Shown here one piece after another: positions 37,767 through 39,952 of a stretch of DNA of 42,657 nt. Numbering within the stretch: the stretch's first letter is position 1; each line of letters opens with the position of its first letter. Both the position numbers and the translations under genes were made by a program. The DNA is from Escherichia phage Flotzy. The stretch is taken from the sequence record PP925827.1; one strand, given 5' to 3'. Below the pieces are notes generated by a model, which saw only the letters and a list, made by a program, of their open reading frames with translations, was not told the DNA's origin and did no database searches.

Positions 37767-38621
37767 ATGAGCACTAAATTAACGGGTTACGTTTGGGATG
37801 CTTGTGCCGCTTCTGGCATGAAGCTATCCAGCGTTGCCATCATGGCGCGTCTGGCAGACTTCAGCAGTGATGAAGGGGTTAGCTGGCCTTCCATCGCTAC
37901 CATCGCGCGCCAGATTGGTGCTGGTGAGAGCACGGTTCGCACAGCCATATCTCAGCTGGAAAAAGATGGTTGGTTAACCCGCCAGCAGCGCCGTAAAGGC
38001 AACCGAAATGCATCGAACGTTTACCAGCTCAATGTTGCGAAATTGCAGGCTGCTGCCTTTTCTCACCTGTCAGATTCTGACGCATCAAAATCTGATGCCT
38101 CAAAAACCGACGCGTCAAAATCTGAGGCATCAAAAAACGATGAGAAAGGCGGTTTTCACCCGTCAGAATCTGGGGGGGATCCGTCAGTAAATACAACTAC
38201 TGATCCATCAGTTAAAAAACCTTCTCGTCCGGTTGCGCCGCAACCAGACCCTGAAGTGACGATCACCGATAACGCCATCCTGGTTCTGAATCATCTGAAC
38301 CTGGTTAGCGGCTCACGATACCAAAAATCAAAAACTTCTCTGGAAAACATCCGTGCTCGTTTGCGTGAAGGTTACACCGTTGGCGACTTACAGCTGGTGA
38401 TTGACCTTAAGCATGAGCACTGGAACGGCAATGACGTGCAATACCAGTACATGCGCCCTGAAACGCTATTTGGCCCGAAAAAGTTTGAGGGTTATCTGCA
38501 AAGCGGGATCCGTTGGGACAAGAAGGGGCGTCCACCGCGTGAAAGCTGGGGTGAAAAGAAACACGATCCGATGAAGTTCGGTCCGGTTGATACCAAGATT
38601 CCAGAGGGGTTCAGAGGATGA
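37767..38621 (+). CDS. replication initiation protein (O-like; N-terminal winged HTH, conserved phage C-terminal domain)
   Basis: N-terminal HTH region (SIATIARQIGAGESTVRTAISQLEKDGWL); DASK-repeat linker coinciding with DNA iterons. Confidence 0.7.
   Translation: MSTKLTGYVWDACAASGMKLSSVAIMARLADFSSDEGVSWPSIATIARQIGAGESTVRTAISQLEKDGWLTRQQRRKGNRNASNVYQLNVAKLQAAAFSHLSDSDASKSDASKTDASKSEASKNDEKGGFHPSESGGDPSVNTTTDPSVKKPSRPVAPQPDPEVTITDNAILVLNHLNLVSGSRYQKSKTSLENIRARLREGYTVGDLQLVIDLKHEHWNGNDVQYQYMRPETLFGPKKFEGYLQSGIRWDKKGRPPRESWGEKKHDPMKFGPVDTKIPEGFRG
38076..38138. repeat. tandem direct repeats (candidate origin iterons) inside the O-like gene
   Basis: Four imperfect repeats tctgaYgcNtcaaaa spaced 15-18 bp. 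Confidence 0.6.
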
Positions 38622-39952
38622 ATGAAAATAAATACTGCCGCGCGCTGGCTGAACTGCGTTCAAGACCAGCCCACGAGTTGAAAGAGGTCGGCGATCAATG
38701 GCGCACTCCGGATCTGTTGTTTTGGGGTATCAATGCGATGTTCGGCCCTCTGGTGTTGGACCTTTTTGCCGACGACAGCAACGCGAAGTGCCCAGCATGG
38801 TACACGGCTGAAGATAATGCCCTGACGCAGGATTGGTCAGAGCGTCTTGCAGAACTCGGTGGTGCCGGGTTTGGCAACCCGCCTTACAGCCGCTCTCAGT
38901 ACCACGACAAGCAGGCCGTTACCGGAATGACCCACATCATTAACCACGCTATGGCAATGCGAGAAAAGGGTGGTCGGTACGTTTTTCTCATTAAGTCTGC
39001 GACGAGTGAGACGTGGTGGCCGGAAGAGGCAGATCACGTCACATTCATCCGTGGCCGAATTGGTTTCGATCTTCCTAAATGGTTCGTGCCGAAAGACGAA
39101 AAGCAGCAGCCCACCAGCGCTTTTTTTGCTGGCGCTATCGTGGTCTTCGACAAAACATGGCGGGGTGAACGTTTCAGTTACATCAACCGCACTGATCTGG
39201 AGGCCAAAGGCCGTGCTTCGATGTCGCTGGCCCATTTTGCAGTGGGCAGAACGCAAACTGATGCGGCGCCGGAGCTGGACGCTGAGGTAGTGCCGGAGAA
39301 ATCAGAGGCAGAACTGCCATTAACCCAAAAATCCATTCTGGAAACCAGTGGTGTAGAGGCTTGGGCCTGTGTTGTCGCGGCGTTCGGCGAGAAAGATGAG
39401 TACACCTTCAGCGAGTCAAAGTTTGGTCATACCTGGGCTGCCGACTCTTTGGATAACCCTGAATTTACCAATGTTTCGCCGCTGACGATCGACAGAGCGA
39501 AAAAGCTGATCAGCGAGAGCATCCTGGTGGGTGTTAATGCATGGCTGGAAACATTGCCCTTTGATAGCGATGACGTGAAACAAGACATGTCAGAGCGGTT
39601 ACGCACGGTTGCCGTTGAGTCTGCGAAAGAATACGGCATTAACCACAGTGAATTCATCGCGACCATGGAAAGCCTGGATAAAGCCAAATGGTCAAATATT
39701 CGGGGGATCCGCGCCTATGTCCGTGAGACGCAGGAATCAAAGGACAAGGCGTTAAACGAATCGCGCGTTTGGCCTCTTGAGGTTGGACTGGTGTTTAACC
39801 AGATTGAAGGGGCTGACGCTCTACCTGTTTCACAGCAGAACAAGCTGAAAGCCAATATCAACCAGCTGTGGCTCGAACGTATGCCGACGAGTGAAATTAT
39901 CACGACCGCTGGTGGTCTCTTCAACAGCATGCAGGGGGCCGTCAATGCGTGA
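38618..39952 (+). CDS. phage Dam-like N6-adenine DNA methyltransferase fused to ~260-aa C-terminal domain of unknown function
   Basis: N-terminal WRTP and NPPY (GFGNPPYS) motifs; start overlaps O-like stop (ATGA). Confidence 0.7.
   Translation: MNENKYCRALAELRSRPAHELKEVGDQWRTPDLLFWGINAMFGPLVLDLFADDSNAKCPAWYTAEDNALTQDWSERLAELGGAGFGNPPYSRSQYHDKQAVTGMTHIINHAMAMREKGGRYVFLIKSATSETWWPEEADHVTFIRGRIGFDLPKWFVPKDEKQQPTSAFFAGAIVVFDKTWRGERFSYINRTDLEAKGRASMSLAHFAVGRTQTDAAPELDAEVVPEKSEAELPLTQKSILETSGVEAWACVVAAFGEKDEYTFSESKFGHTWAADSLDNPEFTNVSPLTIDRAKKLISESILVGVNAWLETLPFDSDDVKQDMSERLRTVAVESAKEYGINHSEFIATMESLDKAKWSNIRGIRAYVRETQESKDKALNESRVWPLEVGLVFNQIEGADALPVSQQNKLKANINQLWLERMPTSEIITTAGGLFNSMQGAVNA

Follow-up and report, generated by a model that had tools for sequence, protein, structure and literature searches.

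Why does a phage Dam methyltransferase run on for about 240 residues past its methyltransferase domain, and with which gene do these residues belong? The question is raised by an open reading frame (ORF) at positions 38618-39952 of the window, which is here the whole analysed stretch of 42,657 nucleotides from Escherichia phage Flotzy (sequence record PP925827.1). An earlier note, made from the sequence alone, had described this ORF as a Dam-like N6-adenine methyltransferase fused to one large uncharacterised C-terminal domain. The present analysis points to a different arrangement. With a probability of roughly 0.6 for the three parts taken together, I propose that the ORF is a mosaic in which a Dam frame absorbed two small accessory units, called M and T, through a flexible acidic linker; that T belongs functionally with the next gene, which encodes a C5 cytosine methyltransferase, as its constant upstream companion and not with Dam; and that M is an accessory module. 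The parts of the ORF and the next gene are as follows.

38618..39952, plus strand: the whole ORF (Dam, linker, M and T), 444 amino acids with an ATG start, from the ORF list and the sequence.
38618..39232, plus strand: Dam-type N6-adenine methyltransferase domain, residues 1-205, from Pfam, NCBIfam, motifs and the alignment.
39233..39310, plus strand: acidic, variable linker rich in proline and glutamate, residues 206-231.
39311..39751, plus strand: module M, acidic and all-alpha, residues 232-378, from the alignment, the homologues and an AlphaFold2 (AF2) model with a predicted local distance difference test score (pLDDT) above 90.
39761..39949, plus strand: module T, a three-helix unit, residues 382-444, from phrog_16025, PDLC03332, the linkage to C5 and the ratio of nonsynonymous to synonymous substitution rates (dN/dS).
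39945..41882, plus strand: the downstream C5 cytosine methyltransferase, 645 amino acids, PF00145 at E=1.9e-20.

The 444-codon frame is split by neither a frameshift nor a stop codon, and its existence was confirmed by its recurrence in phages, E. coli genomes and IMG/VR loci. A full-length ORF of 98% identity is encoded by phages Phi06_2987 and Eeyore, and the whole 4.3-kb block is found at about 97% DNA identity in 12 complete E. coli genomes, where PGAP labels the two genes 'phage N-6-adenine-methyltransferase' and then 'DNA cytosine methyltransferase'. Among 80 IMG/VR loci, 41 have the Dam-M-T arrangement, most of them, on more than 30 contigs, with an ORF of 444-448 amino acids. A sequencing frameshift or assembly artefact was thus ruled out, as dozens of independent assemblies contain the ORF without a break. 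The phage is of the E. coli lambdoid temperate type, of the Eeyore, ST64B and phiNP kind. The ORF is joined to both neighbours: its ATG overlaps the stop codon of the upstream replication initiator gene (ATGA, 38618-38621), which bears out the coupled start that the earlier note had described, and its own stop codon overlaps the start of the C5 gene (ATGCGTGA, 39945-39952).

The N-terminal part is a bona fide phage Dam-family methyltransferase and is predicted to be catalytically competent. PF05869 (Dam) matches residues 19-199 (E=2e-43, 148.4 bits against a cut-off of 28.1), and the equivalog model TIGR01712 (phage_N6A_met) matches residues 16-197 with 204 bits against a cut-off of 97.05. The motifs WRTP (residues 28-31), DLFAD (48-52) and NPPY (87-90) are invariant across the aligned Dam homologues, and the protein has the DQWRTP and DLFAD blocks and the [DNS]PP[YFW] signature of the family; the WRTP and DLFAD blocks presumably bind S-adenosylmethionine (SAM). 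GATC would be the expected specificity of a phage Dam-type enzyme, and I take it as the prediction for this protein. No PDB chain matched the whole-protein sequence at E<=1. Conservation with Sb44 of ST64B and the methyltransferase of phiNP is nearly continuous up to residue ~205, and the matches to the Dam proteins of sister phages (SfV, SfII, cdtI and Stx2 phages), which are enzymes of about 200 amino acids, end at residue 203. Since these sister-phage enzymes consist of the Dam part alone, the Dam domain is complete without any extension. The adenine methyltransferase that the earlier note had recognised by WRTP and NPPY is thus well founded. Its layout of some 180 residues of Dam followed by some 260 of extension held in order but not in length, as Dam reaches to about residue 200-205 and the extension has about 240 residues.

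What, then, is the extension? By sequence comparison and modelling, it is a linker followed by two separable all-helical modules rather than one domain. The linker is poorly conserved, varies in length among homologues, has an isoelectric point (pI) of 4.35 and has low pLDDT where it enters the model. In the alignment, Sb44 (297 amino acids) and the phiNP methyltransferase (293 amino acids) consist of Dam, an acidic linker of variable sequence and the C-terminal ~63 residues, and they lack the counterpart of residues ~217-380 of the window protein. Conversely, one homologue (P0016) has Dam and M without T. Dam-M-T and Dam-T alternate among close relatives, in 41 versus 39 of the 80 IMG/VR loci. 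An AF2 run on residues 225-444, which used 19 sequences, gave an all-alpha model (pLDDT 92.3, predicted template modelling score (pTM) 0.70) with a hinge of lower confidence between M and T at about residues 375-384. Thus, the domain-boundary prediction and structure modelling suggested in the earlier note resolved this part as M and T with a confident fold, while the full-length model was poor.

The separate search of the C-terminal part, also suggested in the earlier note, was an exhaustive phmmer search with residues 201-444 against 1.84 billion representatives. It returned only 46 clusters of homologues, and the modules were found on other proteins. Since M and T occur separately and on unrelated proteins, the idea of one large domain had to be given up. 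That the extension is large and uncharacterised was borne out, with no sequence match in Pfam, NCBIfam or PDB. The statement that it holds no recognisable motif stands for these three databases but not throughout, because the last ~60 residues already lie inside 'methyltransferase' profiles (PHROG 111 and 16025, and PADLOC PDLC03332). A Foldseek comparison of the extension with BFVD and PDB gave no match at E<=1e-3, a Pfam scan with the 19 M and T sequences at E<=5 gave only noise, and M and T searched alone against NCBIfam and PADLOC brought up only the methyltransferase profile of which T is already a part. M and T are acidic, with pI values of 4.75 and 5.0, respectively, and a median of 5.7 in the T family.

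T is a real protein domain, as shown by purifying selection and a confident AF2 fold. Its motif is WPxEV...Q..KLK..IN.LWLE...EII.AA. It is matched by phrog_16025 at residues 383-437 (E=5e-15), phrog_111 spans residues 3-443, and PDLC03332 matches two stretches of the ORF, of which the C-terminal one is T. Compared with the T modules of ST64B and phiNP, whose Dam+T architecture the ORF shares, T has 84-86% identity. The median dN/dS of T is ~0.24, with synonymous sites near saturation, and across ~40-50% amino-acid divergence the hydrophobic/polar pattern is kept and W, P, E, I and N are invariant. T is carried by Dam, by a class-I SAM methyltransferase with FDPPH (P0149), by proteins of unknown type (P0152 and P0161) and by free-standing ORFs of 85-120 amino acids. 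The source names of the partner proteins are uninformative ('ParB/RepB/Spo0J', 'methyltransferase' and 'hypothetical').

Does T follow the adenine methyltransferase or the C5 enzyme? A survey was made from the C5 enzyme with one genome per species. In all 69 Enterobacterales-type loci, where the C5 family has ~620-680 amino acids, T ends at or overlaps the C5 start. The forms that T takes in these loci are as follows.

28 of 69 loci: T free-standing.
31 of 69 loci: T on Dam (2 also with M, 2 also with a PAPS_reduct domain, 1 with another N-terminal domain).
7 of 69 loci: T on a P0149-type methyltransferase.
2 of 69 loci: T on MT-A70.
1 of 69 loci: T on ParB.

At 22 of the 28 loci with a free-standing T, no upstream adenine methylase of the families tested was found, and thus T travels with C5 and not with the adenine methylase. 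On the same count, T was rejected as an intrinsic C-terminal domain of adenine methylases. The P0149-type methyltransferases of IMG/VR tell the same story: with T, the next gene is C5 in 26 of 27 cases, and without T, C5 is absent in 49 of 53. P0152, a protein of 245 amino acids with an unknown N-terminus and T, is followed by a 680-residue C5 methylase on a 72-kb phage contig. In the survey made from T, the next gene is C5 at 67 of the 80 IMG/VR loci, RusA at 7 and something else at 6; at least 4 of these last 6 retain C5 as 3' remnants or with an internal deletion that keeps the frame, which points to recent deletions. Identity to the 645-residue enzyme of the window is 74-80% for the C5 enzymes encoded after T in phiNP and in two further loci (L004 and L006). 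A Shine-Dalgarno-like run, AGGGGG, lies within the last T codons before the C5 start, which indicates that T and C5 are translationally coupled.

It is therefore asked what T might do for C5. Most likely, T would be a small protein-protein partner of the C5 enzyme, an adaptor or a regulatory subunit (activator or regulator). If so, the methylases producing N6-methyladenine (m6A) and 5-methylcytosine (m5C) would be made together and possibly tethered, and both might methylate the phage DNA as it replicates in the early lytic cycle, which would shield it from restriction. A more elaborate version is conceivable, although I hold it only tentatively: T may be a portable docking or activating subunit of prophage C5 methylases with several target-recognition domains (TRDs), which builds an m6A and m5C complex co-translationally when fused to the upstream enzyme, and M may act as another adaptor, through which this complex, or in sister phages ParB, reaches the phage initiator or the replisome. 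If true, this would be a modular 'methylation complex' architecture that has not been described for phages.

Module M has a core motif, SGVEAWACVVAAFGxKxEYTFSESKFGHTWAADS, starting at residue 244, and the AF2 model shows seven helices and a tiny hairpin. Its conserved core (A..AAFG.K..Y.F.ES[KR]..H.W..DS) may point to a defined surface for binding or activity. M matched no family in Pfam, NCBIfam or PADLOC. A role as a DNA mimic was considered and rejected, as the acidity is only modest (net -9 over 147 residues). M is a rare optional insert. It is carried by Dam proteins and by proteins with ParB-N and HTH_ParB domains (P0123, P0125, P0129 and P0130), in which it is C-terminal, and a Plesiomonas protein (P0164) has M with an unrelated N-terminus. 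In Pantoea/Erwinia-type phages, a ParB-M protein occupies the same slot, in the order initiator, small ORF, ParB-M and RusA. Most ParB proteins in that slot have no M, including one (L106) that lies beside an initiator of 98% identity. M would thus be an optional acidic helical add-on common to Dam and to ParB-like proteins of the same slot, and my best guess is a protein-interaction or targeting module. A longer variant of M also exists (P0157, P0162 and P0170). At three loci (L008-L010), Dam and the long M are two ORFs with a change of frame at '...R|MSYIS'. At L008 (5420-7035), and likewise at L009 and L010, the two overlapping ORFs encode a Dam of 194 amino acids and a long M-type protein of 344 amino acids, and the fused relatives read '...RMSYIS...' there; either the gene was split recently or the position is a site of frameshifting.

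Several observations weigh against the proposed arrangement. T is kept without C5 in ST64B-like phages, where RusA is the next gene (7 of the 80 IMG/VR loci), and there it may be a relic or do something that does not involve C5. Eleven distant C5 homologues (~50% identity) have no T; ten are of the Firmicutes type and one is from the gammaproteobacterium Arsukibacterium. Neighbouring genes are co-inherited, so part of the co-occurrence of T and C5 could reflect linkage and not function, although an explanation by linkage alone is weakened because the upstream partners of T are varied. That T contacts the C5 enzyme or has an effect on it is a step that I infer. M lacks informative homologues, a match by fold and a neighbour that is always present. 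Finally, the full-length AF2 model (pLDDT 55.9, pTM 0.29) is uninformative on how M and T pack against Dam.

What else could the extension be? The initiator gene upstream bears on one of the alternatives.

37767..38621, plus strand: replication initiator with a winged helix-turn-helix (wHTH) domain and Phg_2220_C/TIGR02220, from Pfam, PHROG and NCBIfam; its stop codon overlaps the Dam start.

The earlier note had called this initiator O-like and had remarked that the ORF sits where lambda has the helicase loader P; among its suggestions was a replication-linked function fused to the methyltransferase. In its present form, this explanation says that the extension, or at least M, stands in for a lambda-P-like loader or guides the methylase to the initiator or to the replisome. 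I consider it improbable. The gene does lie directly after the initiator gene, to which its translation is coupled, neither a helicase nor a loader is annotated in the near-identical phage Eeyore, and the initiator is of the Phg_2220_C type at 58 of 60 loci with M versus 46 of 100 without M. However, this association is confounded by relatedness, it fails for the long M variant (L008), and the 98%-identical initiator of L106 is accompanied by a ParB without M. The likeness to lambda P consists of gene position only: an hhalign comparison of the alignment of M and T with lambda P gave a probability of 0.2%, and M and T matched no replication or helicase-loader family in Pfam, NCBIfam or PHROGs. 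Moreover, at two loci (L004 and L006) T occurs together with pairs of Phage_rep_O and an IstB/DnaC-like loader, many relatives have Dam alone or Dam+T, and in sister phages the slot holds only a Dam of ~200 amino acids or a ParB protein. Thus, a replacement of lambda P was not upheld, and of the suggested replication link nothing is left for T, while an adaptor role is weakly possible for M only. The name O-like did not hold either, as the wHTH and Phg_2220_C protein has no similarity to lambda O by BLASTP. A hidden helicase loader is thus unlikely here, and this phage group probably depends on a DnaD-like initiator and host factors for helicase loading. The earlier note had also offered a target-recognition domain; here, a domain for target recognition or DNA binding would define or widen the specificity of Dam. 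The extension is attached to a small methyltransferase core without an obvious large TRD, and four adenine methyltransferase families carry T, as this would predict. On the other hand, M and T are both acidic, which is not DNA-binding-like and argues against a TRD, and Dam enzymes of ~200 residues without extension are common in sister phages. The association with the methylase is not obligate, since T also stands alone or is attached to ParB and to proteins of unknown type, and M is on ParB; the presence of T follows C5 and not the adenine methylase; and the structure comparison shows no similarity to known TRDs. I therefore give this explanation very little weight.

A counter-defence role may also be considered, in which T (perhaps also M) is cargo such as an inhibitor of methyl-cytosine-dependent type IV restriction (McrBC, McrA or Mrr), kept beside C5 since m5C-containing phage DNA would be attacked, and the fusions are neutral accidents. 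Several features agree with this: T and C5 are always linked in the Enterobacterales-type loci and never in the 11 distant homologues, T is in many cases a small acidic protein of its own, it is promiscuously fused to unrelated partners, and the frequent deletion of C5 suggests a cost. However, PADLOC yields for T only the methyltransferase profile that already contains it, there is no fold match to known anti-restriction proteins, the link to McrBC is conjectural, and a tight stop/start overlap is more typical of the subunits of one complex. A counter-defence role thus seems rather unlikely. It might finally be argued that T has no protein function and is a translated leader which gives the C5 gene its coupling and ribosome-binding site, because the T stop codon overlaps or abuts the C5 start at every locus and the AGGGGG run sits in the last T codons. 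A leader would hardly be expected to show purifying selection (dN/dS ~0.24) across ~40-50% amino-acid divergence, a conserved hydrophobic/polar pattern with invariant W, P, E, I and N, and a confident three-helix AF2 fold, and I find this explanation scarcely credible. The mosaic with T as a companion of C5 and M as an accessory module is thus preferred.

Some further features of these genes were observed. The C5 enzyme has six 'xxPxxxT[IVL][TL]' repeats, at residues 309, 341, 389, 421, 461 and 530, in a long variable region at residues 309-549 (window 40869-41591). These could be several tandem target-recognition units of a multispecific enzyme. The C5 gene has been repeatedly deleted in near-identical phages (L020, L025, L038, L040, L042, L056, the source of protein P0010 and E. 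coli ECONIH5 (H53)), with traces in the form of 3' remnants, an in-frame internal deletion or a chimera of Dam-M with the C5 C-terminus. Such repeated loss suggests that the gene is dispensable or costly. A contig labelled as a Geobacteraceae metagenome-assembled genome (L253) has a C5 of 98% identity to that of the window, preceded by a Dam-M-T ORF with an identical T, and is probably a misbinned Enterobacteriaceae phage contig. Within the initiator gene, at 38076-38135, four tandem copies of a 15-bp unit, TCTGACGCATCAAAA, encode SDASK repeats; they are iteron-like and might serve as the origin of replication, in the manner of lambda O. Another DNA methyltransferase gene lies near the lysis genes at 2029-3057 on the plus strand (342 amino acids, TDPPYF motif, 97% identical to Eeyore CDS0044). 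Together with Dam and C5, the phage thus carries three DNA methylases. Eeyore (L251) has a gene annotated as queuine tRNA-ribosyltransferase, possibly DpdA-like, in its early-left region (6050-6802), and tblastn gave no match to it in the window, which does have the integrase and dNMP phosphatase genes that flank it in Eeyore.

The annotation of these genes deserves comment. The label 'phosphoadenosine phosphosulfate reductase' (PAPS reductase) stands on Dam genes in pharokka and RefSeq annotations, in Eeyore (L251, 13150-14484) and in the RefSeq entries of ST64B, SfV and cdtI. The family phrog_33262 matches the ORF only via profile positions 283-488, which are the Dam part of PAPS_reduct+Dam(+T) fusions; genuine PAPS_reduct+Dam+T fusions exist at L276 and L302. 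Judging from these profile positions, the label is a transfer error. Hundreds of Enterobacteriaceae prophage genes labelled 'phage N-6-adenine-methyltransferase', or wrongly 'PAPS reductase', have at their C-terminal end a module whose proper partner would be the C5 enzyme encoded downstream. Databases already list the Dam domain and the combination Dam+T, only as 'methyltransferase', and Dam-M-T is a rarer variant. Literature on ST64B Sb44, C-terminal domains of phage Dam proteins, multispecific prophage C5 enzymes, orphan phage methylases, Hia5-type enzymes and polyvalent proteins gave nothing describing M or T. In the searchable literature I found neither the extension as two portable modules, nor T as the constant companion of a C5 family, nor its fusion to at least five kinds of upstream protein. 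M and T would add two helical domains without an assigned fold to the inventory of mobile phage accessory domains. T as a C5 companion would also open the question of how temperate phages coordinate adenine and cytosine methylation, and whether T would act as a tether, as an activator or as a safeguard against methyl-dependent restriction.

How does the ORF compare with known systems? The closest are the Dam+T proteins of ST64B (Sb44), Citrobacter phage phiNP and hundreds of Enterobacteriaceae prophages (PHROG 111; PDLC03332), whose Dam is 76-80% identical and which have the linker at the same position and the same C-terminal T. In phiNP, a C5 methylase of the window's family follows Dam+T, as here. 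These proteins differ in lacking the ~147-residue M, and ST64B has RusA and not C5 after T. The short Dam proteins (~200 amino acids) of SfV, SfII, cdtI and Stx2 phages are ~72% identical over residues 1-203 and have a similar position in the early region, but have no linker, M or T. Hia5/Hin1523 are described in the literature by DPPY and FxGxG motifs, in contrast to NPPY and DLFAD here, and were not used as analogues. In the two-polypeptide C5 methyltransferases M.AquI alpha/beta and M.EcoHK31I alpha/beta, a small chain is encoded tightly against the C5 gene, acts together with the C5 chain and supplies conserved catalytic motifs. T differs from their small chain in having no methyltransferase motifs and in being often fused to a different enzyme, and the 645-residue C5 enzyme itself carries FAGGGG, PDC, ENV, QGFPDGY and GNAVPPP. 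A broader parallel is offered by the ParB-methylase fusions and polyvalent proteins of phages (Iyer et al. 2017, PMC5512222); a search of that text with four terms found no description of M or T. The likeness lies in the combinatorial fusion of a DNA methylase or ParB with small domains that are specific to a lineage of mobile elements, and the difference is that Dam-M-T is a small, early-expressed protein of three modules from the replication region and not a giant protein delivered with the virion.

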